From NCBI GenBank assembly GCA_964348095.1, contig CAYGBK010000015.1:3840-67839 (forward strand): a DNA stretch of 64,000 nt, written 5' to 3'. The position numbers and the translations under genes were made by a program. How positions within the stretch are numbered: position 1 is the stretch's first letter; every line of letters starts with the position of its first letter. This DNA is from an uncultured Thermodesulfobacteriota bacterium. Lineage in GTDB: Bacteria > Desulfobacterota > BSN033 > WVXP01. The notes beneath the pieces are model-generated. The model did no database searches, was not told where the DNA came from, and saw only the letters and a list, made by a program, of their open reading frames with translations. Positions 680-47,453 of this stretch are shown here, one piece after another.

Positions 680-1732
680 GTGGTCATCCGCGACGCAACA
701 CCTGACGACAATGAGGTGCTCCAGAAGCTGCAGGCGACATGTCCACAAGGCACGTCGGTCCTCGTGTCTATTGTCAACATACCCGACTTTTTTGCACGGG
801 CCAAAACCTATGAGTCTCACCGGGTCTTTGTCGCCTGTGCCGATACCGGGATTATCGGATCAGCTGCGGTAGGGGTGCGTGACGCCATCGTGAACGGCGA
901 AACCCAGCGAGTCGGATACGAGTTCCAGTTTTTCACCGCTCCCGACCACCGAAGAAAGGGCGTTGGACAGGCCCTTCATCGGCATATCGAAGACTACCTC
1001 GTAAGCCAAAAGGCGGCTCTATCTTATCTTTTCGTCATGGCGGGGAACGCTGCCCCTCAGCGGCTCTTTGAGCGTGAGGGTTTCAGACTGCACCGCACAG
1101 TTGCCATGCCGATAATTCTGGTATACAAGAAGATGGGTGTGAATTCCAAAGCGAAGATGAGGCCGATTACCTCCAGAGATTTCCCTATCGTGGCCAGGCT
1201 GATGAATGAGACGTGGACGGGGTATGATTTCTACGAACCAAAGTCGGCCCGCGGATTGGCCCAGTTCATTGATTGCACACCCGCATATAGTCTTGACCAA
1301 TTAATGGTCCTGGAGGATGAGGGCGAGATCATTGCTTGTCTGGGTTTTTGGGACTGGAGTCAAATTGCGCGAATTACGGTCAGGGCGGTCAGTGGGCAGC
1401 TGAAAATTATTGGGCTCATGACGACCCTACTTCGTCCCATTTGGTCGATGCCGCGAATTCCCAAAGCCGGGACAATCATGAAACAGTGGTGCTTGACACC
1501 GATCGCCTATAGGGCCCCCGAGCACCTGATACCACTCATTCGATACATAAACAACCTTGCTATGAACAGGGGCATTGAGCAGATCTATTTCATTTCTGAG
1601 CGAAATGATCCACTGCTCCGTTGTCTGAAAGGACTGTTCCATCGGGATGTGGCCTTGCACCTGTATATTAAATCGCTTCAGAAGATCCTGGTCGGCGACA
1701 ATCGAATCTTTCTCGATGGGATTGACCTTTAG
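680..1732 (+). CDS. GNAT family N-acetyltransferase (two-domain, 350 aa)
   Basis: GTG start preceded by AAAGGATGGAG. GNAT motif A (QRVGYEFQFF...HRRKGVGQALHRHIEDYL). Too long for a single GNAT fold, so the C-terminal half is probably a second acyltransferase-like domain. Confidence 0.6.
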   Translation: MVIRDATPDDNEVLQKLQATCPQGTSVLVSIVNIPDFFARAKTYESHRVFVACADTGIIGSAAVGVRDAIVNGETQRVGYEFQFFTAPDHRRKGVGQALHRHIEDYLVSQKAALSYLFVMAGNAAPQRLFEREGFRLHRTVAMPIILVYKKMGVNSKAKMRPITSRDFPIVARLMNETWTGYDFYEPKSARGLAQFIDCTPAYSLDQLMVLEDEGEIIACLGFWDWSQIARITVRAVSGQLKIIGLMTTLLRPIWSMPRIPKAGTIMKQWCLTPIAYRAPEHLIPLIRYINNLAMNRGIEQIYFISERNDPLLRCLKGLFHRDVALHLYIKSLQKILVGDNRIFLDGIDL

Positions 1733-1881
1733 CAAACGATAGGCGTGCCGGCGCACGGGGGAGGGCGATTATTCGCTTCATCTCTCGATACACAAAGCAG
1801 TGCATGCAATTAGTTCGACGACTCGGTGTGGTGAAACGAACGGCTTTGCCATAGATTCTGGTTCGGAAAGGAGGGCTAAAC

Positions 1882-3111
1882 ATGTTTGATCTTCTTCTGT
1901 CCGAGGAGGAAAGGTCCCTCAAGAAAGAAACGAGGAGATTCGCCAAAAAGGGGGTCTCAAGTGCCCTTATTCGGAAAATGGACGCAGAAGAGGTCCGTTA
2001 TCCACGGGAGTTTATTGAAAAAGCAGCTGCCCAAAATCTGCTCGGTCTGCGATTCCCCGAGCAGTGGGGTGGCAGGGGATTGAAATGGACGGCTGAGGTT
2101 GCTGCTCTGGAGGAGTTGGGCGTTTTGGGATCCAGCCTCATCTGCCTCTATTCTCTCGTCAGTATCGTCGGAGAAGCGATTGATGCCTTCGGAACAGAGG
2201 ATCAGAAAGAGAGATATCTTAAGCCGACCCTTGAGGGTAGGCTCTGCTGTGCAGAGGCTCTCACCGAACCGAGAGGGGGATCGGATTTCTTCGGGGCAAC
2301 GACCATAGCCCGAAAGGATGGGACGGACTATGTCCTGGATGGGCAAAAGCGCTTCGTGGTCGGCGCTGAGGGGGCCGACTATTTTCTGGTCTATGCAAAG
2401 ACCGATCCCGATGCTCACCCTCACAAGTCGATTTCTGCTTTCCTTGTCGATCGAGACGGGGGAGTGGAGGTCAAACATGTGTATGGCCTTCTCGGATCAC
2501 GGGGTGGCGGGACCGGGAGAATATACTTTCAGGATACAAGAGTTCCTGCGAGGAACCTCGTTGGTCCTGAACATGGCGGGGCTATTGTTTTTAATCGGAT
2601 GATGATCCCCGAGAGACTCACAACGGCGGCGGGTTGCCTCGGTATGGCCCGATGTTGCCTCGAAGTGGCAACGCGCTATAGCGATCGGAGAAAGGCCTTT
2701 GGGGATTTCATCCGCCGATTTCAGGCCGTGAGCTTCAAAGTGGCTGATTCTGTCGCGCGACTCGATGCGGCCCGGAGTCTCGTTTACGTAGCGGCCCGGC
2801 ACGTGGATGACGGCCTCGATTCAAGACGGATCGTCTCAGAAGCTAAGAAGACCTCAACCGAGATGCTCTGGTCGGTCGTGAACGACTGCATGCAGGTCAT
2901 GGGGGGCATAGGCTATACCAACGTCTATCCGATAGAGCGATTTCTCAGAGACGCCCGTCTTCAGATGATCTGGACTGGTACGAATGAGGTCATGAACCTC
3001 CTCATTCAACACGAATACTATAAGGAGCTCCTCGGGGGAAAAGACGATGTGAGGGAAGTGGAGATGGACGCCATGGACGAGGAGGGGGAGGAAGAAAAGG
3101 TTTTTGAATAA
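1882..3111 (+). CDS. acyl-CoA dehydrogenase
   Basis: RBS GGAAAGGAGGG. ACAD signatures TEPRGGSDF and QVMGGIGY. Length 409 aa. Confidence 0.85.
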
Positions 3112-3153
3112 GAAACGGTACGAGATTTCACAACCTGCGCAGGAGAATACGAG

Positions 3154-5331
3154 GTGTTCGGTTATCGCAGAAACACTGGTTTTCGAAGATACCTGAGACT
3201 GGCTAAAAACACGCTGAACAACAACTGGACGGGAAGCTACACAAAACCCTCGCCCAGACTCTATCCTCACCAGTGGAACTGGGATTCAGGTTTCATTGCC
3301 ATCGGCTATTCCCATTATGATCAAAGACGGGCACAAAAGGAAATAATGTCTCTTTTCAAGGCACAGTGGCCCAATGGAATGTTACCCCAGATCGTTTTCA
3401 ACGCCCGTGCCCTGGGGAACTATTTCCCTGAACCCGATTTCTGGCAGATACCTGGGGGCGGACTGACCAGTGGTATCACTATGCCACCGCTTCACGCGAC
3501 GGCATGCCTCCGTATCTACCAGTACGCGAGGCAGAGTGATGAAGCACGGAGTTTCTTGACAACCATGTATCCAAAACTGGTGGCCTCTCACCGGTATCTC
3601 TACCAGAGCAGGGATCCGAAAAAGACGGGCCTTGCATATATCAGACATCCTTGGGAATCAGGCCTGGATAATTCCCCAACATGGGATAGCCCTCTCGAGA
3701 AGATGAGGATCGACAAAAAGGCCCTTCCACCATATGAACGGAAGGACCTTAACCACGGGATCCCTGCTGAACAGCGTCCCAGTGATGACCACTACGATCG
3801 ATACGTTTACCTTGTCGATCTTTTTCGGAGGTATCGATACGACGAAGGGTCGATCTACCGGGAATCTCCATTTCTTGTTCAGGATGTGTTGTTCAACTCG
3901 GTTCTGTCAAGAGCTAACCGTGATCTGTCGGAAATAGGGAAAATACTGAAGATGGATACGGGAGAGGTGAAAGAATGGACAACCGAGACGACTCGTGCCC
4001 TTCGTCAGAATCTCTGGTGTGAGAATTGTAGCCACTTCGAGGCATTCGATCTTGTCCAGGAGGAGTTCATCCATACGTCAACGGTTGCCACCTTCATGCC
4101 TTTGTTCGGTCGGGCCGCCTCAACCGCCCAGGCGGAGCGCCTCTATGAGTATCTCAACTCAATCGCCTTTTGCGAATTGCACCAGGGTAACTGTTTTACC
4201 GTGCCGACACATGACATGACCCAAAAGGGCTATGATCCCCAGAATTACTGGCGGGGACCGATCTGGATCAATATTAACTGGATGCTCTCCCAGGGTCTCC
4301 AGGCATATGGCTACAGGGAAAAGACCGACGCCATGAAAAAAGACTTGGCTCAGCTTCCGATCCGGTTCGGTTTTCACGAATACTTTGACTCCCAGACAGG
4401 GGAAGGCTACGGCTCTGACAATTTCTCTTGGACGGCGGCACTCCTCATCGACCTCATCAGCGACTATTATGAAGAGGACAGAAATCGGTTTGGCTGGTTT
4501 GGATTGGGTGGCGTTCGTCGGCTGAAGCGATGCCGAATCCTCAACGCTATCGATGGTGTCAGATCCGACACAATGGCTGACGTTGCATCCGCCCTGAAGG
4601 CTGGCTTAGGGGACCTCAAAGATAAATTCTTCGATATGAACAGAGGGCTGGTCGATTATGAATCGATGAAGAGATCTCCCGAGTATGCGGAATATCAGAA
4701 GAGGGTGACTCAACTCAAACAGTTTGATTTGGCCCAGCTCGTAACGCGGGAGCAGAAGTTGGCATTCTGGATTAACCTTTACAACGTCCTTGTGGTCCAT
4801 GGGATTGTTGACCTCGGTATCAGCGCATCGGTCAGGGAAGTCCCCGATTTCTTCCGCAACATTTCCTACCAAATCGGGGAGTTCTTGTTTTCTCCCGATG
4901 ACATAGAACACGGCGTTCTCAGGGGAAATGCCCGACCACCTTATGGGATCTTTTCTCGATTCAGAGGAGGCGATAGACGTCGACAGTTCATCCTAGACGA
5001 GGTCGATCCCAGAATCCATTTTGCCTTGGTGTGCGGCTCCCGGTCTTGTGCCCCAATTCGGTTCTACAAGGCAGACCATATCTATGATCAGCTGGATCTG
5101 GCAGCAAGGAATTTTATCAACAGTTCAGAAGTGATCATTTTGCCGGAGAAAGACAAGATTTTTTTATCACAGATTTTTCGTTGGTATGAAAGGGATTTTG
5201 GAGGGAAAAAGGGCGTGTTTCAGTTTCTCCTTCGATATCTCGATAGGGACGAGCGGTCGAGATTTCTCGAGAACCACATGGATCGAATAATCACTGAGTA
5301 CCTGTTCTACGACTGGAATCTGAACCATTGA
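3154..5331 (+). CDS. fusion of a GH63-like (glucosyl/mannosylglycerate hydrolase-type) glycoside hydrolase domain with a DUF547 domain
   Basis: N-terminal about 450 aa carries WNWDSGFIAIGY and HPWESGLDNSPTWD (GH63 / MGH-type acid motif). C-terminal about 250 aa carries LAFWINLYNVLVVHGIV, DPRIHFALVCGSRSCAPIRFY and SQIFRWYERDFGG, which are diagnostic of DUF547. Confidence 0.6.
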   Translation: MFGYRRNTGFRRYLRLAKNTLNNNWTGSYTKPSPRLYPHQWNWDSGFIAIGYSHYDQRRAQKEIMSLFKAQWPNGMLPQIVFNARALGNYFPEPDFWQIPGGGLTSGITMPPLHATACLRIYQYARQSDEARSFLTTMYPKLVASHRYLYQSRDPKKTGLAYIRHPWESGLDNSPTWDSPLEKMRIDKKALPPYERKDLNHGIPAEQRPSDDHYDRYVYLVDLFRRYRYDEGSIYRESPFLVQDVLFNSVLSRANRDLSEIGKILKMDTGEVKEWTTETTRALRQNLWCENCSHFEAFDLVQEEFIHTSTVATFMPLFGRAASTAQAERLYEYLNSIAFCELHQGNCFTVPTHDMTQKGYDPQNYWRGPIWININWMLSQGLQAYGYREKTDAMKKDLAQLPIRFGFHEYFDSQTGEGYGSDNFSWTAALLIDLISDYYEEDRNRFGWFGLGGVRRLKRCRILNAIDGVRSDTMADVASALKAGLGDLKDKFFDMNRGLVDYESMKRSPEYAEYQKRVTQLKQFDLAQLVTREQKLAFWINLYNVLVVHGIVDLGISASVREVPDFFRNISYQIGEFLFSPDDIEHGVLRGNARPPYGIFSRFRGGDRRRQFILDEVDPRIHFALVCGSRSCAPIRFYKADHIYDQLDLAARNFINSSEVIILPEKDKIFLSQIFRWYERDFGGKKGVFQFLLRYLDRDERSRFLENHMDRIITEYLFYDWNLNH

Positions 5332-5385: not shown

Positions 5386-6447
5386 TTATGGTTCACGAGG
5401 AAACTTTTCTTCTCGAATGACCGATATCGGCTTGCCAGTCCTGGCCTCAACCAGATGGTTCCTCACGACCCTAAGAATCTTTTTTGAAAAGACCTTTCCG
5501 GCAATTTCGTCTATTGCCTCTTGTGTTATCTTTTGAAATTCCTCCAGTTCTTGAGGGGAAAGCTCTACCAACTTGATGCCCTCCCGAGTCATCACCTCGA
5601 GTGCCTCTTCGTTGTCCCCTCGGCTTTCGGCATTAATGGGGGCGACGTGTTTTTGGAACGACTCTTTGAGGACCCCCTGGTGTTCCTGAGGGATACGATC
5701 GAATGCCTTCTGAGTCATGACAACCGCACCCATGGAGAAACTCAGGGGCGCTCGAGTGATGTACTTGACTTTGGTGAACCACTGAAGAGCAACGGCCCCA
5801 AAAGGCGTGCTGTAGATGACATCGACTAGCCCCGTCTGAAGGGCCAGCAGGACATCTGAGATTCCCAAAGGAACGGGTGAAACGCCTGCTTTCTCGAAAA
5901 CGGCCTGACTCATTGGATCGCCTTCAGGCATCCACACCTTCGCATTGCGAACGGCTCCCACGCTTGACATGGGTTTGTTTGACATCATGTAAATGAAACC
6001 AATCTCTGACCAGCCGAGAAGAATATATCCCTTCTTTTCCAGAATCTTTTCGAAACGGGTTGAGGTCTTGGACAAGACATGGTCTACTTCTTCATAGGTC
6101 TGGAAAAGAAAGGGAGTTCCCAATACCTGGAGCTCTTTGTCAATCTCACCTACGCCCAGACCGGTAAGCCCAGCAATGTGAATCTGACCAATCCGCATCT
6201 TTCGTAACACAGTATGGTCGTCACCCATAACGCCGCCAGGATAGGCCCTCATTTTCACCGTCCCATCTGTTCGAGATAACAATTCACGGTTCGCCTGCTT
6301 GAAGGCCTTCATCCAAGGGCTGCCCTCTGGAGCCAGGGTGGCAAACTTTAAGATGATCTGCTTTTCCTCTGCGGACGCAGGAGGTGATAAAACCAGCAAG
6401 AGTCCTATCATCAAAAGAAACCAGAGAGCCATCTGTCGTGAAATCAT
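5386..6447 (-). CDS. TRAP transporter substrate-binding protein, DctP family (orphan; no Q/M partner nearby)
   Basis: Signal peptide followed by ILKFATLAPEGSPWMKAF...RAYPGGVMGDD...RIGQIHIAGLTG. Close paralog of the TatP/DctP at 47453..48466. Confidence 0.85.
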   Translation of the reverse strand: MISRQMALWFLLMIGLLLVLSPPASAEEKQIILKFATLAPEGSPWMKAFKQANRELLSRTDGTVKMRAYPGGVMGDDHTVLRKMRIGQIHIAGLTGLGVGEIDKELQVLGTPFLFQTYEEVDHVLSKTSTRFEKILEKKGYILLGWSEIGFIYMMSNKPMSSVGAVRNAKVWMPEGDPMSQAVFEKAGVSPVPLGISDVLLALQTGLVDVIYSTPFGAVALQWFTKVKYITRAPLSFSMGAVVMTQKAFDRIPQEHQGVLKESFQKHVAPINAESRGDNEEALEVMTREGIKLVELSPQELEEFQKITQEAIDEIAGKVFSKKILRVVRNHLVEARTGKPISVIREEKFPREP

Positions 6448-10228: not shown

Positions 10229-10260
10229 TCCCTTCGACCAACAGCCTAAGATTAGCGGCG

Positions 10261-10290
10261 GAGCGGGGTGAGTCACCCCGCTCTTCTGCT
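10261..10290 (+). terminator. rho-independent terminator-like hairpin after the cytochrome c' gene
   Basis: Perfect inverted repeat GAGCGGGGTGA-G-TCACCCCGCTC followed by TTCTGCT. Confidence 0.45.
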
Positions 10291-10720
10291 ACTTAGTTAT
10301 TACTCCCTAGGACAACAAAGGAAGAGAGCATTAGAGTCGTATACCGGAAGAGGGGCCGTGAGTAACGTGATCGGGTTCCGACCCTGTATTGGGAAAGTGT
10401 CTTCTGTATTCCGGTAGGCTGGATGAGATGCGTTTGGTGTTCTGTTTTCACCAGCCAAAGAAATGACGGGAGAGGCGTTCCCACAGTGGATCGGTCAGCA
10501 TGATTTCTTCCCTAAGTCAGACCGACCTGCCCAAGCTAATCCGAATGTCAAGAGTGGGGTATTGGGGGAAATGTCAATATTTCACAAGAGTCTTTTATTC
10601 CCGTAAACCCTGTCTGCTCAATCTAAATCCAAATCTGCCTGTCTTGTTTTTTTCCCTCAATCCCTTAAAATGGATGCCAACAGAACGTGGTGAAAGAACG
10701 CTGAGTCGATCTAATCTATA

Positions 10721-11308
10721 ATGCTTGCCGGAAGAAAGAATCGAGTTATGGACGCTGCACGGCACCACACCCCTACTATAATCGCAACGCTTGTCGACAA
10801 TCACCAGCGCTTCCTTTCGTTCCTCACGCGTCGTGTGGGTAATCCATCCGACGCCGAGGAAATCCTCCAGGCTGCCTTCGTCAAGGGCGTGGAGAAATCG
10901 GATTCGATTCGCGACGGCGAGACCGTCGTGGCGTGGTTCTATCGCCTGCTGCGAAACGCGGTTATCGATTACTACCGCCACCGGGATGCCGAACGCCGTG
11001 CGTTGGAACGCGTGGCTGGAATGGGCACTGAAACGGAGTCCGTGAAAGCAGATTTCGAAAGTGCCGTTTGCCAGTGTGTGAATGATCTGTTGCCGACCCT
11101 AAAGAACGACTATGCTGTGCTGCTCAGGCGTGTTGACTTGGAGGGCGTAAGTATTCCAGAAGTCGCGAAGGAGGCAGGCATCACAGAGAACAACACACGG
11201 GTGAAACTCCACCGCGCCCGGACAACCCTGCGCAAACAGCTCGAGATAAGCTGTGGAAGCTGCGCCGAGCATGGGTGCCTCGACTGCACCTGCCAGCGGC
11301 CCGACTGA
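10721..11308 (+). CDS. ECF-type RNA polymerase sigma factor with Cys-rich C-terminal extension (CorE-like)
   Basis: Sigma-70 region 2 (LQAAFVKGVEK...WFYRLLRNAVIDYYR) and region 4 (LLRRVDLEGVSIPEVAKEAGI). CQC in the linker and C-terminal CGSCAEHGCLDCTC. Alternative start at 10748 (MDAARHH). Confidence 0.75.
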   Translation: MLAGRKNRVMDAARHHTPTIIATLVDNHQRFLSFLTRRVGNPSDAEEILQAAFVKGVEKSDSIRDGETVVAWFYRLLRNAVIDYYRHRDAERRALERVAGMGTETESVKADFESAVCQCVNDLLPTLKNDYAVLLRRVDLEGVSIPEVAKEAGITENNTRVKLHRARTTLRKQLEISCGSCAEHGCLDCTCQRPD

Positions 11309-25350: not shown

Positions 25351-27828
25351 TCACATCAAATTGATCGGATCTACGTCCACATCGAGCTGAACATTGACTG
25401 TTTCATTTTCCACCTTTCCAACCAGTTCACCGACGAACCGACGAAGCCTCTCTGTGTGATCGCTTTTGATAAGCAACTGCCATCGATAACGGCCTTTGAT
25501 TCTGGCAAGGGGGGCGGGACAGGGACCGAGTATGTGGAGATGATCTCTATAGACTTTTCGTTTCTCTCTGATCTGGGTTCCAATCGTCCCAAGGCGCCTG
25601 GCGAATTTTTCGGTCACGTCATCTTTGCTCCCGGAAATCCTGAGGTTGGTGAGGCGCGAGAAAGGAGGATATTGCAACTCCTCCCGGTACAGGATCTCTT
25701 GCTGATAGAAGGTGAGAAAGTCGTGGTCCTTTGCCCTCTGAATACTGTAGTGATCAGGGTTATAGGTCTGAATGATGACTCTACCGGTTTGATCTCCTCG
25801 ACCGGCTCGTCCCGCTGCCTGAGTAAGAAGTTGAAAGGTCCTTTCACTGGCTCGAAAATCCGGAAAATGGAGAACGGTGTCCGCGCAGATGACCCCGACA
25901 AGTGTGATGTTGGGGAAGTCGTGTCCTTTCACGATCATTTGGGTCCCGATGAGGACGTCGATCTTCCGCGATTCCATCGCCTGAACAATTCTCCTGTAGG
26001 CTCCTTTTCTCGTGGTCGTGTCGCGGTCCATGCGAGCGATTCTCGCTGAGGGAATGAGCCTGAGGATCTCGTCTTCCACTCTCTGCGTTCCAATTCCCAG
26101 GGAATGCAGGTTGTAGCCCTCGCATCGGGGACAGATTGCCGGTACGTCCGTGGTGAGGCTACAGTGGTGACATTGAAGGGTCCCCTTTGCGGTATGGAGG
26201 GTCAGCGTAACGCTGCAGTTGGGACATTGAGAGGTCCATCCGCAATCCTGGCACAGAATGAAATTGGCAAATCCCCTCCGATTGAGAAAAAGAAGGCTTT
26301 GGAGCCCCTGTTCTGCATTGATGAGGAGTGCTTCTTTAAGTTGCCCCGAGAAGACGCGGTGCCTGAAATCACCTTTTTCAAGACGCATGTCCACGATATC
26401 CACGGTGGGTAGGAGTCGGGACTCGACTCGCTCGGGGAGTCGGAGGCGGCGGAACTTTTTTGTCGTCGTGTTATAAAAAGACTCCATCGATGGGGTAGCA
26501 GATCCCAGGATCAGGAGGGTGCCACACATTTTGGCCCTCATGACGGCGAGATCTCTGGCGTTGTACTTGAGTTTTTCTTCCTGTTTAAAGCTCGTCTCAT
26601 GCTCCTCATCAACGATGATAATGCCGAGCCTCCTGAAGGGCGCAAAGATTGCTGACCGAGCGCCAATGGCGATGGAAACTTCCCCTTTCAGAATCTGGCG
26701 CCACTGGTCGTATCTCTCACCAGGAGAGAGTCTGCTATGCAAGACCGCGATACCCCCTTTGAACCGTCTTTTGAATCGAGAGATCAACTGGGGTGTCAGA
26801 GAAATCTCGGGGACCAGGACAATGGCCTCCCTGCCGTCCTCAATCACTCGTTGGATCGCCCTCAAATAAACCTCGGTCTTGCCGCTCCCGGTGATTCCAT
26901 GAAGAAGAAAAGGACGAAAACCTCCCTTAGAAATCGATTCCTCGATTTCTGATAGGGCCTTTTCTTGATCGAGGGTAAGAGGGGGCCCAGTCTCAGATCC
27001 AAAGTCCTCATCATCGAAAGGATCCCGATAGATCTCTTTGAAATCGAGTGCCACCATTTCTTTTTTCACAAGACCCCTAAGATACGGATCCACCCTAGGG
27101 AACTTTGCGCGAAGATCCCGGCGAGAAACCCTTTTCATTGATCGGATGAATCTAAGAATTTCCGACTGTTTCGGGGTTAGCGGGGGGTCTCCTTCAGGTC
27201 GGTGTTCTCCGCGAAAGACAATAAATGGTTCGACCTTCGCCCTCGTTTTCATCTTCTTCAGCCGAAGCTCTTCAAAAACTAGATTGCTTTTCTTTAGAGA
27301 GAAGATACGAGAATAGAGGTTTTCAAGTTTCAGACGGCGAGAAAGGCCGTGAATGTCAGCTTCGCCCTCTTGTGCCAGGGTCATGAGCAGGCGGCCGTCT
27401 GCTGACTCTGGCGGGAATTGAGCAAGTCGGGCCCGACCGTCAGGCGTGATCTTTACAATCCGGGACGTCTCTACAATCAACCCCGGAGGCAGACTAGTTT
27501 TGATAACCTCACCCAGAGGATGGTAGTAATAATCGGAGATCCACCTTAGGAACCGAAGCATTTGCTCATCGAAAAGGGCGGTCTGATCCAGTACATCAAT
27601 GACATCTCTCACCCGGGCCGGATCGAGACCGTGAGGTGTTGGCGCTGGAAAAGCGAGAACATATCCTGTGACCTTTCGCCTTTGGAAGGGGACCAGAACT
27701 CTTTTCCCAACCCCCACCTGATCCTTAAGTTCACGGGGAACCCGGTAGGTAAATGTCTTCCGGAGAGGGAGACTAACCGCCACCTCAGTAAAACGTTTCA
27801 TTCTCATTTCATTCCTTGCCTGGCTCAT
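25351..27828 (-). CDS. priA: primosomal protein N' (PriA replication-restart helicase)
   Basis: Walker A GITGSGKTEVY, DEEH box, Cys-rich zinc-binding insert CQDCGWTSQCPNCSVTLTLH...CHHCS...CPRCEG. Possible true start at MKRF (27801). Confidence 0.9.
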   Translation of the reverse strand: MSQARNEMRMKRFTEVAVSLPLRKTFTYRVPRELKDQVGVGKRVLVPFQRRKVTGYVLAFPAPTPHGLDPARVRDVIDVLDQTALFDEQMLRFLRWISDYYYHPLGEVIKTSLPPGLIVETSRIVKITPDGRARLAQFPPESADGRLLMTLAQEGEADIHGLSRRLKLENLYSRIFSLKKSNLVFEELRLKKMKTRAKVEPFIVFRGEHRPEGDPPLTPKQSEILRFIRSMKRVSRRDLRAKFPRVDPYLRGLVKKEMVALDFKEIYRDPFDDEDFGSETGPPLTLDQEKALSEIEESISKGGFRPFLLHGITGSGKTEVYLRAIQRVIEDGREAIVLVPEISLTPQLISRFKRRFKGGIAVLHSRLSPGERYDQWRQILKGEVSIAIGARSAIFAPFRRLGIIIVDEEHETSFKQEEKLKYNARDLAVMRAKMCGTLLILGSATPSMESFYNTTTKKFRRLRLPERVESRLLPTVDIVDMRLEKGDFRHRVFSGQLKEALLINAEQGLQSLLFLNRRGFANFILCQDCGWTSQCPNCSVTLTLHTAKGTLQCHHCSLTTDVPAICPRCEGYNLHSLGIGTQRVEDEILRLIPSARIARMDRDTTTRKGAYRRIVQAMESRKIDVLIGTQMIVKGHDFPNITLVGVICADTVLHFPDFRASERTFQLLTQAAGRAGRGDQTGRVIIQTYNPDHYSIQRAKDHDFLTFYQQEILYREELQYPPFSRLTNLRISGSKDDVTEKFARRLGTIGTQIREKRKVYRDHLHILGPCPAPLARIKGRYRWQLLIKSDHTERLRRFVGELVGKVENETVNVQLDVDVDPINLM

Positions 27829-27992
27829 GGCAGTCGGCCTGGAAGGCGAAAAAAAGCATCGTCGATTTCACAGTCGCCTCTACCCCATTATCCCATGCCC
27901 TCGGCGTTTGTCAAAAGGAAAATCCGGGCCACAAAGGCCACGGGCAAAGAACGAAAACTTCAAGTTTGAGCCCCGGCTCCCGATATATTATA

Positions 27993-30176
27993 ATGGGAGT
28001 GATGAAGGCCACCACATCGATCAAAAAGATTCAGTCAAACTGTGTGCTTGTGTCGACCAGAAGCGTTGGAAACATTCTGTTCGGCTGCCCGCCAGAGATT
28101 ATCAAATGGTTTCTTCGCCGGAAGAGGCCGATACCTTCAATCGTCGTCCTCCCGAGGGACTTCCTCATCGACAACCGGCTAAACGTGGAACCAGAGTTTC
28201 TCATCTATGGAAATTTCTTTCTTCAAAAGAGGAGGCTTACCATCATCGGCACGGGGGGTCAACTCCGACGAATCAAGAGGATTTTCAGGGAGTCTTTCCT
28301 GGGGCCGCGAGGGGTCAGGGAGGGTAAAGGAGAAAGGGATTTCCTCAGGGCCAGGAGAGATGATGGGAAGGCTTTGAAGGTGGAGGATCTCGTCAATCTG
28401 AGTCCTTTCCGGCGCGATCGGGACGGTGTGAGAATCGATGGGGTTACGATCAAAACTACCCGTCCGGGTTGTTTTGAAATCTGGGAAGGGGGCGCCCTAC
28501 TTGGAGAGGTGGATACTACAGTTTTCAAGCTCCCGTCTCACCCACCCGATCTTTTCAAGGAAAAGCCCCTGGAGCCCCCAAGCCTTGGTGTGAGCTTTGT
28601 GGGGACCGGGAGTGGATTCAATCCCTATCGGCGGACCACGAGTTTCATTCTCTGGGTCAACGGGAAGGGTATCTTCGTTGATCCGGTCAAAGACCCGTGG
28701 GTGGAGCTCAACAGGTTAGGAATCGAGGATATGGATGTCCCCTCTGTCTTACTTACCCATTGCCATGCCGACCATGATGCGGGCATGATTCGGGCTGCCA
28801 TTCATCAAAGAAGGATACGCCTCATCACCTCCCGGGTCGTTTTCGAGAGCTTTTCGCGTAAGGCAAAGGCATTGGCCGGGTGTGACATTGAGAAATATGT
28901 CGACTTTGTCGAGATCAATCCTGGCGACACCTACGAGTTGGAGAATGCCTCGATTCGGGTTTCGTCTGCCCTCCACCCCATTCCCACGATCCGCTTTGAG
29001 GTTCTGTTCCGTGACCCGAAATCGAGAAAGCGTCTCAGAGTAGCCTATTCGGGAGACACATGTCTTGACTGCACAAAGATCGAAACTATGTATCGTCGGA
29101 GGATCATCGACAAGAAAAGGCGGGACGAGCTTCTTCACTTTGGCTTTGACGCAGACCTCTACATTCACGAGGCTGGCCAAGAGGCGATCCACACGTCGGT
29201 GCAAGAATTCGAGCGTCTTCCCGATCAAGTCATAAAGAAGCTAATCCTTGTTCATGCCGGAGATCTCCCCAAGGACTTGAAAGGCTTGCGGGTTGCGCAA
29301 GAAGGTGAGACGGTTGAACTGATTCCCCCTACCCCATCCCCTCGGGATGTGATCGAGCTGATTGCCTCGAACTCGATCTTCGAGAGCCTCAAAAGGGAAG
29401 CGGTTGTCCGCATTGCAAAGCAGGCCGTCCTCATACCGTTTAAGGTTGGGCAGAATATCGTTACCCAGGGGAAAAAGGGAGATCGATTCTACCTTATCGC
29501 TCTTGGCAGGGCAAAGGTTTTGGTCGATAACGCGATGAAAGCAGTTCTCGGGAAGGGCGATTATTTTGGCGAGATCTCTCTTCTAAGTGGAAAACCCCGA
29601 AATGCAACCGTCCAGGCCATTTCTGATGGATTGGTTCTGACTTTAGAGAAGGAGACTTTTCTCGAACTGGTCAGAGAAGAACCTTCGATCAACAAACGAC
29701 TGCAAGACGTCCTCAGGCTTAGACCCGTTGTGTCTCAGTTGACCTGTTTTAGAGGTCTCCCATCAGATCAGCTTGCCAGGCTGTCCCTTCGGTTTGAAGA
29801 ATGCAGACGTCGCAAGGGCGATCGGGTGGTTGAACAGAAACGGCGAGGGGATGCATTTTTCGTGCTCACGTCGGGAAGAGCCGTTGTGAGCGTGATGGAT
29901 GGAGAGGGCCGTGACAAGATTATTGCAAAGCTAGGCCCCGGAGACGTCTTCGGAGAAATTGCCCTTCTCAGGAACATCCCACGGACGGCAACGGTCGAGA
30001 TTACCTCCGACTCTGCGACCCTGCTCAAGTTGAGAAAAAAAGACTTCCAGACCCTAACGGCATCGATTCCCAGCCTAAGTTTCTACCTCAATCGGATAAC
30101 CGCTGAGAGATTACGGAAGCTGGCAAGGAGAAAGGCGACCGAATTCCATGCGCGCTTTTTGAGTGAATTGGCATAG
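27993..30176 (+). CDS. metallo-beta-lactamase-fold hydrolase fused to two cyclic-nucleotide-binding (CAP-family) domains; putative cNMP-regulated phosphodiesterase
   Basis: LLTHCHADHDAGM (HxHxDH) with downstream His/Asp ligands. Two CNB signatures: GDYFGEISLLSGKPRNATVQA and GDVFGEIALLRNIPRTATVEI. -10-like TATAAT immediately upstream of the ATG at 27993. The ORF-track start at 27816 overlaps priA and is unlikely. Confidence 0.7.
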   Translation: MGVMKATTSIKKIQSNCVLVSTRSVGNILFGCPPEIIKWFLRRKRPIPSIVVLPRDFLIDNRLNVEPEFLIYGNFFLQKRRLTIIGTGGQLRRIKRIFRESFLGPRGVREGKGERDFLRARRDDGKALKVEDLVNLSPFRRDRDGVRIDGVTIKTTRPGCFEIWEGGALLGEVDTTVFKLPSHPPDLFKEKPLEPPSLGVSFVGTGSGFNPYRRTTSFILWVNGKGIFVDPVKDPWVELNRLGIEDMDVPSVLLTHCHADHDAGMIRAAIHQRRIRLITSRVVFESFSRKAKALAGCDIEKYVDFVEINPGDTYELENASIRVSSALHPIPTIRFEVLFRDPKSRKRLRVAYSGDTCLDCTKIETMYRRRIIDKKRRDELLHFGFDADLYIHEAGQEAIHTSVQEFERLPDQVIKKLILVHAGDLPKDLKGLRVAQEGETVELIPPTPSPRDVIELIASNSIFESLKREAVVRIAKQAVLIPFKVGQNIVTQGKKGDRFYLIALGRAKVLVDNAMKAVLGKGDYFGEISLLSGKPRNATVQAISDGLVLTLEKETFLELVREEPSINKRLQDVLRLRPVVSQLTCFRGLPSDQLARLSLRFEECRRRKGDRVVEQKRRGDAFFVLTSGRAVVSVMDGEGRDKIIAKLGPGDVFGEIALLRNIPRTATVEITSDSATLLKLRKKDFQTLTASIPSLSFYLNRITAERLRKLARRKATEFHARFLSELA

Positions 30177-30872: not shown

Positions 30873-31760
30873 CTAGGGCAACAAGGGCCTTGCCGGGTTG
30901 TGCCCGTGAAAGTTCTTCTGGGCTGCCTTTGGAGTGCTGTTAGCGTAACAGTAGATGCACCCCTGGGGACAAGTATCGTACGCTCCGATATCCGTGCTTT
31001 CCACGCACCTGCAAAGCTTTCGCTGGCCCCTGTCTTTCGAGATGGAAAGGTCCAGTCCGAAGAGCCGATTGAGGAGCTCGTCGTCGATGCACTTTCCGTG
31101 GCCGATGCCGAACGCCTCCAGGTCGAATGGTTCGGCACAGGTGACGACCTCGAACCCGTGATTCCCGCCGATCTCGCCGATGAATTTGGGGAGATCACCT
31201 ACCTGTCCCTCCTGATCATGAATATCTGTGACTATGATGTCTTTTCCTCTCTCTAAATGCTTGAGGGTCTTCATTCGTTTTGGGTAGATGTCGAGAAAAC
31301 TGATAACGCATCGGCAGGTAAACCCGCTCAGGGCCTCGGCAATCTCCCCAAAGGTGTCGTGGTGATACCTCTGATCGGTCAAACTGCTGAGAATGATCGG
31401 GTCATATCGCCAGATGATCCGACTCGCCCCTACCCTGCCGCTCAGTCTCTTGAATCTCTCTATTTTCAAAGAAATAGAGCCAGGAGACGATTCGAAGACC
31501 CTCGGGTAATGAACCAAGGTATATTGGAAGTAGTAGCGAAACCCCATCCCATCCAATTCGTCCAGATATGGAATGAGGGGATCGGCGTTTCGTGTCCAAA
31601 AGACAATCCCGTCCACATCTGGTGGCTCGAGGCTGACTCGGGTGGTCTGGCTAGGGCGAAAGGGGGTGCGAGTAAAAGCAAAACCACGTCTGATCCGGTT
31701 CATAAACCATGCGGAGTAATAGGCTGGTATGTCAGTTCTTCTACTGGCGCTAATGATCAT
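30873..31760 (-). CDS. DUF1848-family protein with C-terminal Cx3Cx2C cluster
   Basis: MIISASRRTDIPAYYSAWF... is the characteristic DUF1848 N-terminus. C-terminal CPQGCIYCYA. Confidence 0.65.
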   Translation of the reverse strand: MIISASRRTDIPAYYSAWFMNRIRRGFAFTRTPFRPSQTTRVSLEPPDVDGIVFWTRNADPLIPYLDELDGMGFRYYFQYTLVHYPRVFESSPGSISLKIERFKRLSGRVGASRIIWRYDPIILSSLTDQRYHHDTFGEIAEALSGFTCRCVISFLDIYPKRMKTLKHLERGKDIIVTDIHDQEGQVGDLPKFIGEIGGNHGFEVVTCAEPFDLEAFGIGHGKCIDDELLNRLFGLDLSISKDRGQRKLCRCVESTDIGAYDTCPQGCIYCYANSTPKAAQKNFHGHNPARPLLP

Positions 31761-31885: not shown

Positions 31886-32794
31886 ATGAAGTTTGTTCCC
31901 CCATATGTTCAGCTTTATGAAAGTGGGGAATTGGAGGACAGGATTGAGAAGTTGAACCAGATTCTTAAGTCCTGTGAGCTCTGTCCCCGTCGATGTCGGA
32001 TCGATCGCCTGAACGACGACCTGGGCTACTGCCGTGCTGGGAGTGGCTTGAAGGTGTCCAGCGTCTTTCCTCATTTTGGTGAAGAACCTCCCCTGGTCGG
32101 TCGGCATGGTTCGGGGACGATTTTTCTGGCTCACTGCAATCTTCGCTGTGTCTTTTGCCAGAACTACGACATTAGTCATCATGGAGGTGGGGAGGGAGTA
32201 ACAACCGAGCAGATGGCTCGATATATGATCAAACTCCAGCAGATCGGTTGTCATAATATTAACTTTGTCACGCCAACGCACTATGTCGCACAGATTGTGG
32301 CCGCCTTACCCAAAGCGATTGAGCTGGGCCTTCGAGTCCCTCTCGTTTTCAACTGTGGAGGGTACGAATCCCTGGACGTCATAAAGCTGCTCGATGGGGT
32401 AATCGACATTTATATGCCCGATGTCAAATTCTTCTCTTCCCATGTGGCTGAAAGGCTCTGCAATGCGCCAGACTATCCAGAGGTCGTCCAATCGGTACTC
32501 AAGGAAATGTATCGCCAGGTGGGAGACCTGACGTTGGATTCTCACGGAATCGCCGAGCGGGGTCTTCTTATTCGACACCTCGTCATGCCCCATGACCTGG
32601 CGGGGACCGAGGGCGTTGTTCGGTTTATTGCCCAGAATCTCTCTCGGGACAGCTACGTGAACATAATGGCCCAATACAGGCCTGTTTATCGGGCAGTCGA
32701 GCTTCCGGATATCAATCGTCCCGTCACAACTGAGGAATTCCTGGGGGCTCTCGATGTAGCTCGGAAGTATGGTTTGCACAGGGGTTTTGAGTGA
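31886..32794 (+). CDS. radical SAM enzyme, PflX-like (COG1313; PFL-activase homolog of unknown substrate)
   Basis: CNLRCVFCQN (Cx3Cx2C) plus N-terminal CELCPRRCRIDR...GYC cluster. 302 aa. Confidence 0.8.
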   Translation: MKFVPPYVQLYESGELEDRIEKLNQILKSCELCPRRCRIDRLNDDLGYCRAGSGLKVSSVFPHFGEEPPLVGRHGSGTIFLAHCNLRCVFCQNYDISHHGGGEGVTTEQMARYMIKLQQIGCHNINFVTPTHYVAQIVAALPKAIELGLRVPLVFNCGGYESLDVIKLLDGVIDIYMPDVKFFSSHVAERLCNAPDYPEVVQSVLKEMYRQVGDLTLDSHGIAERGLLIRHLVMPHDLAGTEGVVRFIAQNLSRDSYVNIMAQYRPVYRAVELPDINRPVTTEEFLGALDVARKYGLHRGFE

Positions 32795-33693
32795 AACGCG
32801 ACCAGATCCTTCTCGACGTGTCTCATTTGCGTCAGCAGCTAGAGGAGCTGAGGAACCGCATCGATGCCTTGGAGAAGACCTTTCTAAATGGATCTTTTCT
32901 CACGGACCGGTTAAGAGGGCGCGGTCTTAAGATTCATCGCCACAATCCTCATGATAAGCTTCTTGTTCCCCCAGACCTTTCTCCTGAACTCACCACGCAA
33001 TTCTATGAAAAAATGAAGAAATACTCCTTTCGGCTTTTCTTAAGAGAACTCGTCAAGACTGGGACTCCCTTTTGTCCCAGTGACCTGACTCGGTACTGCT
33101 CAGACCGGGTGGCCGAGGAATATAACCGTTTCCTGAGTGCGACATCCACGGTCTGTTCTCTCAAAGGAGATACGTATCGTCTGAATCGTTCTGGGATTTC
33201 GAGTTTCGGTCCCACCCTAGAGTGGTTTGTGGCACAGATGTTCCAACGGGAATTCGGCTGCCCGGCCACCTATGGGGTCCATTTCAGGGAGACGGATGTG
33301 GGTGGAGACTACGATGTCCTTGCCCTCTGGGAGAATCGTCTCCTCTACGTGGAGGTTAAGTCTTCGCCACCGAAAAGCATTGAGGATCAGGAGATAAAGG
33401 CATTTTTCCTAAGACTCCACGACCTGATTCCTGACCTGGCCTTCTTCTTCAACGACACCCATCTGCGAATGATGGATAAGGTGATTGAGATTTTTAACCG
33501 TGAGATGAAGCGGGTTCCAGAGGGGAGACTGCTAGGAAATCCACCGGAAAGACTCAAAGATGAAATCTATCATATGGACCATTGGATCTACATCTTAAAC
33601 AGCAAGAGAGATATTGTTGGCAATTTCAGTCTCTGTTTGAGAGATCATCTTAGACAGATCAAAGGCCGACGATCGTCATCGCCCGCGAACTGA
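32791..33693 (+). CDS. coiled-coil / winged-helix / PD-(D/E)xK (Mrr-cat-like) nuclease-fold protein, translationally coupled to the radical SAM gene
   Basis: GTG start overlaps the upstream TGA (GTGA). Motif layout TLEWFVAQ (E) ... DVGGDYDVLAL (D) ... YVEVKSS (E-x-K). Confidence 0.5.
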   Translation: MKRDQILLDVSHLRQQLEELRNRIDALEKTFLNGSFLTDRLRGRGLKIHRHNPHDKLLVPPDLSPELTTQFYEKMKKYSFRLFLRELVKTGTPFCPSDLTRYCSDRVAEEYNRFLSATSTVCSLKGDTYRLNRSGISSFGPTLEWFVAQMFQREFGCPATYGVHFRETDVGGDYDVLALWENRLLYVEVKSSPPKSIEDQEIKAFFLRLHDLIPDLAFFFNDTHLRMMDKVIEIFNREMKRVPEGRLLGNPPERLKDEIYHMDHWIYILNSKRDIVGNFSLCLRDHLRQIKGRRSSSPAN

Positions 33694-45693: not shown

Positions 45694-46956
45694 TCACTTG
45701 AGTAGGATAAGGGTGATTCCGGGAAAGTACGTGATAACAATGAGTCCCAAAAGCAAAATAGCCAGGAACGGAAGAGAGGCGAGATAGAGGCTGAGGATAG
45801 GACGACCAAAACGGTAACTTGCGATAAAGAGGTTGATCCCTACAGGTGGCGTGGAATAGCCGATCCCCAGGTTGGTGAGAAAGATGATTCCCAGATGAAC
45901 GGGATCAATACCGTAAGCCTGAGCGAGGGGAAGGATCAACGGGACGACGACGACGAGGGCGGAAAAGATATCAATCATGCAGCCGACAACAAGAAGAAAG
46001 ATGTTGAGGAGGATCAGGAAAAGCCATTTACTCGTGATATGTCCCTGAATGAAGGCGAGAATCTTCAGGGGAACCTGAGCATCGATAAGGTAGTTCGTAT
46101 AGGCAAGGGCCACTCCGAGGATTATCAGAATTCCCCCCACCAGGACCATACTCTCCTTTATGATAGAGAGCAGGGCTTTGACTTTGACCTCACGATGGAC
46201 TAGCACCTCAACAATAAGGACGTAAAAGGCGGTAATGGCAGCCGCATCACTGACGGCAAAAAAACCTGTGTATATCCCCCCGATGACAACAAACGGCAGA
46301 GGAATCTCCCAAATGGAGTCGCGAATGGCCTGCCCCATTTCCCGGGCTGATGATCTTACTATCGGTGTGCCGGCCTTCCATCCCCTGAACACACTGTAAA
46401 CCATCAGAAGAATCACCAGAACTGATCCTGGAAGGATGCCCGCTATGAAGAGCTTGTCAACGCTTGTCTTGGAGATGACCCCGTAGAGGATCAAAGGGAG
46501 ACTGGGCGGGAGAAGCAGCCCGAGTGCACCAGAGGTGGTGATCAATCCTAGAGAGAATCTCTCGGGATATCTCTGGCTGATCAGGGCAGGAAAGACCAAG
46601 CCCCCGAGGGCGATGATGGTGACCCCGGAAGCGCCCGTAAAGGCGGTGAAAAGTGTACATGCGACCAATACCACAACGCCCAACCCGCCAGGCATCCAAC
46701 CAACAAAAGCCTGGGAAAGCCTGACCAGTCGCTTTGGGGCATTGCTTTCTGCCAAGACATAGCCTGCAAAAGCAAAGAGCGGAATTGCCTCAAGCAAGGG
46801 CGTGGAGGCCAATCGATACATTTCGATGATGACAGCGGAGGAGTCAATGCCAGAAAAGTAAAAACTGAGGAGAGCCCCTGCCGCAATAACGATAAACAGG
46901 GGCGTACCGGTCGCTGCCAGAATCAGCGTGACAAGTGAAGTGACCGAGCTCATCAA
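45694..46956 (-). CDS. dctM: TRAP transporter large permease
   Basis: 420 aa, about 12 TM helices, DctM-type repeats. Overlaps dctQ by 4 nt. Confidence 0.85.
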   Translation of the reverse strand: MMSSVTSLVTLILAATGTPLFIVIAAGALLSFYFSGIDSSAVIIEMYRLASTPLLEAIPLFAFAGYVLAESNAPKRLVRLSQAFVGWMPGGLGVVVLVACTLFTAFTGASGVTIIALGGLVFPALISQRYPERFSLGLITTSGALGLLLPPSLPLILYGVISKTSVDKLFIAGILPGSVLVILLMVYSVFRGWKAGTPIVRSSAREMGQAIRDSIWEIPLPFVVIGGIYTGFFAVSDAAAITAFYVLIVEVLVHREVKVKALLSIIKESMVLVGGILIILGVALAYTNYLIDAQVPLKILAFIQGHITSKWLFLILLNIFLLVVGCMIDIFSALVVVVPLILPLAQAYGIDPVHLGIIFLTNLGIGYSTPPVGINLFIASYRFGRPILSLYLASLPFLAILLLGLIVITYFPGITLILLK

Positions 46957-47453
46957 ACCGATTCCTCAAAACTAAGGATTTTGGCAAACCCGTTGAGGCA
47001 GAAATGCAGGGTAATAATCGAGAAGGCCAGTGGGAAAATGATCCCGAGGATCCACCCCGGAATCTCCAAGAAGGAGGTGGTATTTGCCAGGAATTCATCT
47101 CGGACGAACTTAAGCGATCCATGGGTGAGCAAAAGGCATATGAGAGCAGAGAAGAAATCGATGAATATGCTGAGGAGGTTTTTTGCCTTTCCGTGAAGCA
47201 GCCGGGGCAAGATATCGATGGTAATGTGCCTTGACTCTCGGGTTGCCACGGTGGCCCCAAACAGTCCCACCCAAAGGACCAGGTGTCGCAGAGCAACATC
47301 CCCCCAGATGATGCCGAAATGGAAGAGGATACGAAGACAGATCTGGATGAAAGCGAGTCCCACCATTATCAGAACCAAAGAGACAAGGATTGACTGCTCG
47401 ATTTTCTCGAAGAACATGTCCGAACGGCGAAGGAAATGCCGAATAGATTGCAT
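46953..47453 (-). CDS. dctQ: TRAP transporter small permease
   Basis: 166 aa, 4 TM helices, immediately 5' of dctM. Confidence 0.7.
   Translation of the reverse strand: MQSIRHFLRRSDMFFEKIEQSILVSLVLIMVGLAFIQICLRILFHFGIIWGDVALRHLVLWVGLFGATVATRESRHITIDILPRLLHGKAKNLLSIFIDFFSALICLLLTHGSLKFVRDEFLANTTSFLEIPGWILGIIFPLAFSIITLHFCLNGFAKILSFEESV

Follow-up and report, generated by a model that had tools for sequence, protein, structure and literature searches.

A glycoside hydrolase of GH63 type fused to a DUF547 domain, with a possible link to NADPH and thiol metabolism

Introduction

Two enzymes of solved structure, MhGgH of Mycolicibacterium hassiacum (PDB 5ohc and others; PMC6608630) and TTHA0978 of Thermus thermophilus HB8 (Tt8MgH; PDB 2z07, 4wva-c; CAZy GH63), represent the hydrolases of glucosylglycerate (GG) and mannosylglycerate (MG). 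TTHA0978 is a single domain of 420 aa, and MhGgH carries no DUF547 domain. DUF547 is itself a large family distributed across bacteria, plants and protists, without a known function or, in the searches made here, a solved structural relative. We describe a gene joining a hydrolase of this type to a DUF547 domain, located in a 64,000-nucleotide stretch of DNA (hereafter the window) from an uncultured Thermodesulfobacteriota bacterium (assembly GCA_964348095.1, contig CAYGBK010000015.1, positions 3,840 to 67,839, forward strand). The architecture is already present in public databases under uninformative names; its genomic context is previously undescribed in the literature that we searched.

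The mycobacterial enzyme uses Asp182 and Glu419 in an inverting mechanism, and eleven of its substrate residues are strictly conserved in the characterized MgH and GgH enzymes, namely Tyr36, Trp40, Trp42, Asp43, Tyr88, Gln115, Gly180, Arg216, Tyr222, Tyr375 and Trp376 (PMC6608630). For DUF547, the papers searched mention GRX-DEP-DUF547, MIP1-DUF547 and PTEN-DUF547 proteins without a function and report one plant DUF547 protein as associated with the plasma membrane. None of them assigns a function to the domain, in agreement with an initial annotation of this DNA made from the sequence alone. Neither do they link DUF547 to ArsS, to DedA or to the lipoamide-dehydrogenase-like flavoprotein disulfide reductase (FDR) described below, or discuss the GH63-DUF547 architecture.

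An uninterrupted two-domain gene conserved across phyla

The fusion gene is one uninterrupted open reading frame (ORF) of 725 aa, without internal stop, as first annotated. It begins with a GTG codon, a choice that agrees with the aligned N-termini of homologues, and no signal-like segment was seen in the N-terminal sequence. Its main parts are the following.

3141..3145, + strand: Shine-Dalgarno sequence AGGAG, 8 nt upstream of the GTG start
3154..5331, + strand: whole gene, stop codon included; predicted cytoplasmic two-domain protein, GH63-type MGH1-like hydrolase plus DUF547 (ORF translation, Pfam)
3202..4464, + strand: glycoside hydrolase (GH) domain, MGH1-like/GH63-type, aa 17-437 (Pfam PF22422, PDB match; pLDDT mostly >90)
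4474..4578, + strand: variable interdomain linker, aa 441-475 (27% mean pairwise identity; pLDDT <50 for aa 441-453)
4579..5328, + strand: DUF547 region, aa 476-725, with the Pfam core at aa 530-655 (4741-5118) (Pfam, alignments)

Both domains, as initially proposed, were readily detected by a domain scan. PF22422 (MGH1-like_GH) matched aa 37-427 over profile positions 1-356 of 356 (E 1.8e-103; 347 bits against a cut-off of 27), and PF04784 (DUF547) matched aa 530-655 (E 2.4e-37; 128 bits against a cut-off of 27), with weaker matches to Trehalase and Glyco_hydro_63. The motifs on which the initial annotation was built all lie at the expected residues: WNWDSGF at aa 41-47 and HPWESGLDNSPTWD at aa 165-178 in the hydrolase part, FWINLYN at aa 538-544, DPRIHFALVCGSRSCAP at aa 618-634 and IFRWYERDFGG at aa 674-684 in the DUF547 part.

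A chimeric join between positions 4450 and 4600 had been raised as a concern. A search of about 5.8 billion proteins, with matches from NCBI, JGI, ENA and Logan assemblies, retrieved at least 120 clusters (90% identity) that carry both Pfam domains at a length of about 725 aa, with 55-91% identity; most are named 'DUF547 domain-containing protein'. A survey of GTDB with a single genome for each species gave 342 stretches that encode relatives, and in every one of the best 80 of these 342 loci residues ~1-725 are covered. These 80 loci, all from metagenome-assembled genomes (MAGs), belong to about six phyla: most are Desulfobacterota, and the others include Nitrospirota, Aquificota (Hydrogenothermaceae), Gemmatimonadota, Ca. 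Scalindua, Aminicenantes and Deferrisomatales. A version split into two genes, which would have spoken against the fusion, was not seen among the genome loci examined, and the base composition shows no break across the domain join. The same uninterrupted architecture in different assemblies and phyla refutes the idea of two genes joined into one long ORF by faulty assembly or annotation; we found no point in its support and consider it practically excluded. An apparent GH63-DUF547-6PGD triple fusion in one relative (L070; L numbers denote individual loci) did prove to be an out-of-frame ORF-calling artefact in GC-rich DNA.

The two halves are similarly conserved and the linker is not (mean pairwise identity in a 60-sequence alignment: 68% for the GH part, 62% for the DUF547 core and 27% for the linker), which indicates that both halves are under selection. 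Near the end of the linker lies a conserved 'hLN' motif (Asn464) that corresponds to the N-terminus of stand-alone cytoplasmic DUF547 proteins. The model of the full-length protein (pLDDT 84, pTM 0.82) is disordered only at aa 441-453.

An intact hydrolase with an altered sugar-binding position

The closest solved structure to the hydrolase half is that of TTHA0978 (E 2.3e-106; 44% identity over 422 aligned positions), followed by the mycobacterial GgH (E about 1e-72). Residue equivalences were taken from the lists of PMC6608630 and from printed alignments, the offset being verified on Tyr36, Trp40, Trp42 and Asp43. They identify the following positions, where counts of 60 refer to members of the fusion family.

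3262..3294, + strand: YPHQWNWDSGF, with Tyr37, Trp41, Trp43 and Asp44 equivalent to the substrate-binding Tyr36, Trp40, Trp42 and Asp43 of MhGgH (invariant, 60/60)
3481..3483, + strand: Met110, at the position of MhGgH Gln115 (alignment; Met in 60/60)
3667..3669, + strand: Asp172, predicted general acid (= Asp182 of MhGgH), within the aa 165-178 motif (3646-3687) (alignment)
4171..4194, + strand: CELHQGNC, with the Cys340/Cys347 pair, in a GH-domain loop absent from the Thermus enzyme (60/60; pLDDT 60-77)
4378..4380, + strand: Glu409, predicted general base (= Glu419 of MhGgH) (alignment)

The GH63-type catalytic machinery is intact. Asp172 and Glu409 are invariant in 60/60 members, and the window protein keeps ten of the eleven strictly conserved substrate residues (the equivalents of Tyr36, Trp40, Trp42, Asp43, Tyr88, Gly180, Arg216, Tyr222, Tyr375 and Trp376), all ten again invariant in 60/60. 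It shares the same catalytic Asp/Glu and the aromatic substrate cage with TTHA0978, and both have Phe where MhGgH has Gln434. The earlier placement of the acid-base region in the quoted hydrolase motif was thus correct, as HPWESGLDNSP holds the general-acid Asp172. These residues make it very probable that the GH domain is an active alpha-glycosidase, inverting and of the GG/MG-hydrolase type, and we infer that its substrate is a small compound like glucosylglycerate, with an alpha-glucosyl or alpha-mannosyl group that is released as free hexose.

The exact substrate is less certain. The eleventh residue, Gln115, forms a hydrogen bond with the sugar and counts as 'strictly conserved' among characterized GgH and MgH enzymes (PMC6608630); here it is replaced by an invariant Met, and a second pocket residue, His78 of MhGgH, is Gln79 in the window protein and Gln in 51/60 members. 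Both substitutions also distinguish the window protein from TTHA0978. In addition, the protein scores 372 bits against the NCBIfam equivalog for glucosylglycerate hydrolase (NF047898), below its cut-off of 550. For these reasons the fusion proteins should not be called glucosylglycerate hydrolases from sequence alone, a warning that matters for annotation. Of the resemblance first proposed to GH63 and to GG/MG hydrolases, the family therefore stands, and a specific GG or MG substrate is not established.

Further differences from TTHA0978 are the 290 extra C-terminal residues (linker plus DUF547) and the extra loop with the invariant Cys340 and Cys347. This loop (FCxLHQGNC) is placed just before the substrate-binding Tyr365/Trp366, and its cysteines could form a second thiol switch on a mobile active-site loop.

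A cytoplasmic-type DUF547 domain of orphan fold

The conserved fold unit of DUF547 is about twice as long as the Pfam core. The AlphaFold2 model of aa 445-725 (pLDDT 87, pTM 0.87) is confident except in a cysteine-containing loop (pLDDT <50), and structure-database searches found no PDB relative of the domain. An exhaustive HMMER scan with aa 470-725 against 1.84 billion representatives retrieved 8,293 clusters (50% identity) at E<=1e-3; conservation was counted over the 150 closest.

4906..4923, + strand: EHGVLR, with Glu585, His586 and Arg590 (Arg590 in 149/149 representatives)
4933..5001, + strand: 23-residue segment, aa 594-616, mark of the cytoplasmic-type DUF547 (149/150 closest; absent from exported stand-alone paralogues)
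5017..5049, + strand: HFALVCGSRSC, with His622 and the C-x4-C pair Cys627/Cys632 (conservation; inside the poorly modelled loop)
5194..5196, + strand: Asp681, within IFRWYERDFGG (144/144 representatives)

Of the 150 closest representatives, 113 stand alone, with a length of about 270-300 aa, and for the most part have no signal-like N-terminus. Together with the 23-residue segment, this defines a cytoplasmic-type DUF547 subfamily to which the window domain belongs. The hallmarks FWINxYN, EH, HFAxxCxxxSC, WYxxDF and YDWxLN are shared with the stand-alone members and with those fused to GH15 (see below). Besides Arg590 and Asp681, the best conserved positions are Asn592 (147/149), Asn544 (145/146), Asn541 (144/146), His622 (145/150) and Glu585 (141/149), followed by Cys627 (138/150) and Cys632 (137/149).

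A cysteine pair had been pointed out in the initial annotation as a possible sign of a redox or regulatory role. The pair is indeed present and its members co-vary: both were kept in 134 representatives and both lost in 9, with 3 + 3 single losses (Fisher p 6e-10, a value that ignores kinship). The cysteines are nevertheless about 92% conserved rather than universal. A homologue at JGI is named 'thiol-disulfide isomerase/thioredoxin'; a thioredoxin-like nature was not supported by the Pfam and structure-database searches, which gave no thioredoxin fold with a CxxC active site.

A second, exported type of stand-alone DUF547 exists among the relatives (examples: L009, 6298-7056; L028, 6358-7134; L024, 6470-7237; L057, 6323-7084). 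These paralogues of about 255 aa are 25-33% identical to the window domain, have an N-terminal signal-like hydrophobic segment and so are probably exported; they usually lie directly beside the disulfide reductase gene.

Gene neighbourhoods of the GH63-DUF547 fusion

To describe the neighbourhood, the ORFs of 85 loci were clustered and labelled by Pfam, NCBIfam and BLAST to representatives, and duplicate loci were removed. Counts were made over 54 unique loci with a total flank of at least 6 kb and over 23 long-flank loci with at least 7 kb on each side. The commonest neighbour in the 54 unique loci was FDR (22), followed by the membrane protein DedA (18), G6PD (16), a short 6PGD (14) and the exported stand-alone DUF547 (14). 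Then came ArsS (9), 6PGL (8), glucokinase (8), a TIGR04169 peroxidase-like protein (7), TIGR04282 (6) and an ArsM-like protein (4). At least one partner is present in 14 of the 23 long-flank loci, FDR in 11, genes of the oxidative pentose-phosphate pathway (oxPPP) in 11 and ars-type genes in 8. Proteins of the AhpD-like type with a CxxC motif are also found among the neighbours.

The typical gene order, as in L009 and L027, is stand-alone DUF547, FDR, 6PGD, GH63-DUF547, G6PD, TIGR04169, ArsS and DedA, with 6PGL and glucokinase farther on. Orthologues of the window gene thus occur in neighbourhoods of the ArsS-type ('arsenosugar biosynthesis') kind, which also hold FDR, DedA, stand-alone DUF547 and the GH15 fusion described below. 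Neither DUF547 nor its GH fusions are named as part of this system in NCBIfam or the papers searched. ArsS (TIGR04167), TIGR04169, TIGR04282 and TIGR04283 were found above their curated cut-offs beside GH63-fused, GH15-fused and stand-alone DUF547 genes.

The FDR (for instance L083, 3804-5252; L009, 7238-8716; L002, 6513-7976) has a CLH[YF]GC redox site and, in 19/25 sequences, a C-terminal ...KGRAC tail. Its terminal cysteine recalls the relay cysteines at the C-terminus of MerA or TrxR. The fuller form of the tail is ...KIFSxKVKKxLKFFFxLKGRAC, with a single terminal cysteine, in a flavoprotein of the lipoamide-dehydrogenase/MerA-like kind.

Several loci showed peculiarities of their own. In Ca. 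Scalindua (L056, 7227-9647), GH63-DUF547 is directly preceded on the same strand by a gene of catalase-peroxidase type (806 aa, Pfam peroxidase), and the usual partners are absent. A signal-peptide-bearing DUF3047 protein is encoded directly downstream of the fusion in Nitrospirota loci (L076, 12187-12900; L083; L024), 4 of the 54 loci in total. In L001 (CP070710.1, a long-read MAG chromosome; 4065-4905 and 10256-10936), FDR, G6PD and other neighbours are fragmented, which suggests assembly frameshift errors rather than real pseudogenes.

Other fusions and clusters of DUF547

A second fusion family combines TREH_N, a trehalase-like GH15 domain and DUF547 in proteins of about 885 aa and comprises at least 120 clusters, annotated as 'glycoside hydrolase family 15 protein'. 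Its DUF547 is of the cytoplasmic type and 38-44% identical to that of the window protein, whereas its hydrolase is unrelated in sequence to the GH63 half and resembles the archaeal-type trehalase TreH1 (415 bits, below the cut-off). We take this N-terminal domain to be likewise an inverting (alpha/alpha)6 alpha-glucoside hydrolase. In two Nitrospirota loci the GH15-DUF547 gene stands beside the GH63-DUF547 gene (L083, 5301-8036; L079, 1655-4309). In the four further loci examined (L086-L089, 9001-~11700), a CMD-family gene and/or ArsS accompanies the fusion in 4/4, and DedA with FDR in 3; all four count as ArsS-type neighbourhoods. The row is complete in L086 and L088. Upstream, on the opposite strand, lie TIGR04282 and TIGR04283; DedA, FDR and GH15-DUF547 come next; downstream, again on the opposite strand, are 6PGL, G6PD and 6PGD and then TIGR04169, ArsS and RpiB. 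All four ars-type NCBIfam calls in L086 exceed curated cut-offs. The GH63-DUF547 and GH15-DUF547 fusions thus occupy the same slot of one conserved cluster.

In one locus of Geobacteraceae, a cluster without any GH runs AhpD-like, DedA-DUF547, ArsM-like, then DUF547, FDR, DedA, ArsS and 6PGD. The fusion of VTT/DedA with DUF547 seen there is found in Geobacteraceae proteins of about 510 aa (P0456, which is L092 9001-10548, and P0505). The L092 cluster also carries a Pit/PHO4-like transporter.

A stand-alone DUF547 gene follows the genes of 2-oxoacid dehydrogenase E1/E2 (lipoyl) in Desulfuromonas. In L091 (5119-10753; Desulfuromonas versatilis AP024355.1, a cultured organism) and L090 the row reads E1alpha, E1beta, E2 (lipoyl), a 163-aa protein without family match, DUF547 of the cytoplasmic stand-alone type and an aldo-keto reductase, without a gene for E3.

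Finally, among the 35 multi-domain proteins closest in their DUF547 domain, the partners were glutaredoxin (13, of which 12 also with DEP), GH15 (5), MGH1-like (2), RasGAP (2), protein kinase (1) and HTH (1). The glutaredoxin-DEP proteins include plant class IV glutaredoxins (GRX-DEP-DUF547), likewise uncharacterized, which are eukaryotic and in which the partner of DUF547 is glutaredoxin plus DEP, not a glycosidase.

Discussion

We tentatively propose that the fusion is a cytoplasmic bifunctional or regulated enzyme, in which the hydrolase releases hexose and is coupled, by way of DUF547, to an NADPH/thiol redox system. The hydrolase would mobilize a stored small glucoside and release beta-glucose. 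Enzymes of GH63 and of GH15 both act with inversion, and it is the beta anomer that G6PD uses. The glucose released could then pass through glucokinase into the oxidative pentose-phosphate pathway (G6PD, 6PGL and 6PGD), which would supply NADPH to the disulfide reductase. Judging from its relatives, DUF547 is most likely a redox-responsive partner or control domain that would tie sugar release to the thiol/disulfide system.

This proposal is based on the partner genes (FDR, DedA, glucokinase, G6PD, 6PGL, 6PGD and ArsS-type genes), at least one of which is present in about 60% of the well-sampled loci. The thiol link is suggested by the glutaredoxin fusions, the joint loss of the two cysteines, the cysteines of FDR, the AhpD-like neighbours and the DUF547 gene that follows a lipoyl E2 gene, and the DedA link by the DedA-DUF547 fusion proteins. 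The redox or regulatory hint of the initial annotation has thus gained real, if circumstantial, support. As DUF547 is kept while the hydrolase swaps between GH63 and GH15, it would be the constant module, and the two independent glucoside-hydrolase fusions, together with the DedA and glutaredoxin fusions, point one way, to a thiol- or NADPH-linked role beside FDR and DedA. For compatible-solute biology, this suggests a connection of some anaerobic hydrolases of GG/MG type with redox supply instead of osmotic or nitrogen recovery; the setting of the fusion family, a redox/oxPPP/ArsS-type cluster in anaerobes, contrasts with that of MhGgH, which serves recovery from nitrogen starvation in mycobacteria. 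The NADPH, disulfide and ArsS-type context would also provide the first testable clues to the function of DUF547.

Several observations weigh against this proposal. A tblastn search found no partner genes, ars-type genes included, within the 64-kb window, so that the cluster argument is transferred from orthologues (55-66% identity) and not read from the gene's own locus. Partner genes are also absent from 22 of the 54 unique loci, and the coupling is therefore not obligatory in cis. The neighbour counts ignore shared ancestry, and many of the loci are from Desulfobacterota. Within DUF547, the cysteines are missing in about 8% of the relatives, including one GH63-DUF547 cluster (P0249), and the strictly conserved residues are Arg, Asp, Asn and His, which would suit a ligand or catalytic site unrelated to redox. 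The literature searched holds no biochemical data for any DUF547 protein.

These last features of the domain would be expected if DUF547 were a non-redox, ligand-sensing allosteric domain with incidental or structural cysteines, binding a sugar, a sugar phosphate or a phospholipid head group and modulating the hydrolase, glutaredoxin-DEP, RasGAP, kinase, PTEN or DedA to which it is attached. Its promiscuous fusion to signalling and catalytic domains, the invariance of Arg, Asp, Asn, His, Trp and Tyr rather than Cys, the dispensability of the cysteine pair in some members and the plasma-membrane association of a plant DUF547 protein all agree with such a role. It would leave unexplained the consistent pairing with FDR, glutaredoxin and AhpD-like oxidoreductases, and the coordinated loss of the cysteines argues that they work as a pair; we regard it as somewhat unlikely. 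A structural or oligomerization appendage on an ordinary GG/MG hydrolase that recycles a compatible solute, with a synteny inherited without functional meaning, appears very unlikely to us. The GH domain looks fully competent alone, characterized homologues are oligomeric (tetramer, PMC6608630), and the window locus lacks partner genes. The DUF547 half is, however, as conserved as the catalytic half and rich in invariant polar residues, it is also fused to the unrelated GH15 in the same cluster slot in other phyla, and stand-alone DUF547 genes occur in such clusters without any GH.

The ars-type genes raise the question whether DUF547 might itself be an enzyme of the ArsS-type pathway and the fusion a true bifunctional pathway enzyme. 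A pocket formed by Arg590, Asp681, Asn541/544/592, His622 and Glu585, with or without the cysteine pair, would then catalyse a missing step, for example the thiol-dependent reduction of a pentavalent methyl-arsenical or the processing of the 5'-deoxy-5'-dimethylarsinoyl-adenosine product of ArsS, with the GH domain providing or taking off a sugar or an aglycone. We know of no enzyme assigned to the steps after ArsS, nor did the literature searched name one. Such an enzyme would fit the large number of invariant polar residues, a common trait of active sites, the ars-type families above curated cut-offs beside all three forms of DUF547 and the frequency of ars-type genes in long-flank loci (8/23). 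But these genes are less frequent neighbours than those of FDR or oxPPP and are lacking from the window, TIGR04169 and TIGR04282 are named 'hypothetical equivalog' in NCBIfam, and DUF547 is abundant in plants and other eukaryotes (GRX-DEP, RasGAP, PTEN and kinase fusions), where an arsenic-specific role is improbable. On balance, we consider a pathway enzyme unlikely. We had also considered the glycerate aglycone of GG as the part of the substrate that matters for the ArsS-type pathway, and set this aside, as a GH15 trehalase-like domain, with no glycerate subsite, occupies the same slot.

A broader conjecture, quite unlikely in our opinion, is that the cytoplasmic-type DUF547 is an overlooked catalytic or thiol-relay part of the widespread ArsS/FDR/DedA system of anaerobes and performs an unassigned step of organoarsenical biosynthesis or detoxification. 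It would cover DUF547 whether fused to GH63, GH15 or DedA or standing alone. If it were true, the hydrolase and the oxPPP genes would act as a dedicated supply route, drawing on stored glucosides to make NADPH for organoarsenical chemistry, and a family of more than 8,000 clusters, plants included, would receive its first function and first fold assignment. Our results also point to candidate genes for steps of bacterial organoarsenical metabolism that have no enzyme assigned.

The surrounding genes of the window

Upstream of the fusion gene, as initially annotated, lie genes for a GNAT-domain protein and an acyl-CoA dehydrogenase (ACAD).

680..3111, + strand: upstream genes, GNAT-domain protein (680-1732) and ACAD (1882-3111) (Pfam)

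The fusion gene starts 42 nt beyond the ACAD stop, and the three genes may form one transcription unit. Scans for promoters and terminators around the gene gave counts at the level of shuffled sequence and were uninformative. The order GNAT, ACAD, fusion is found again in L007, the closest genome relative (74% identity), and in L002 an ACAD gene is likewise upstream, preceding FDR and the fusion; these neighbours are recurrent in the closest relatives only. The GNAT protein has 350 aa, its acetyltransferase domain covers only aa ~3-140, and its C-terminal ~200 residues have no Pfam match. Downstream, an orphan gene for a DctP-type TRAP solute-binding protein (5386-6447) is convergent with the fusion gene.

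The rest of the 64-kb window encodes housekeeping and transport functions, and no compatible-solute synthesis genes were found in it. A 786-aa ORF (27816-30176) combines a metallo-beta-lactamase-fold domain with two cyclic-nucleotide-binding domains and overlaps by a few bases the end of priA, on the opposite strand (25351-27828). Farther on, a DUF1848 protein gene (30873-31760, minus strand) is divergent from a radical SAM protein gene (31886-32794), which is followed by a 300-aa ORF without family match (32791-33693). The window also contains a TRAP transporter with a T component of the TAtT type, consisting of TAtT (48468-49352), DctP (47453-48466), small ORFs and DctM (45694-46956).

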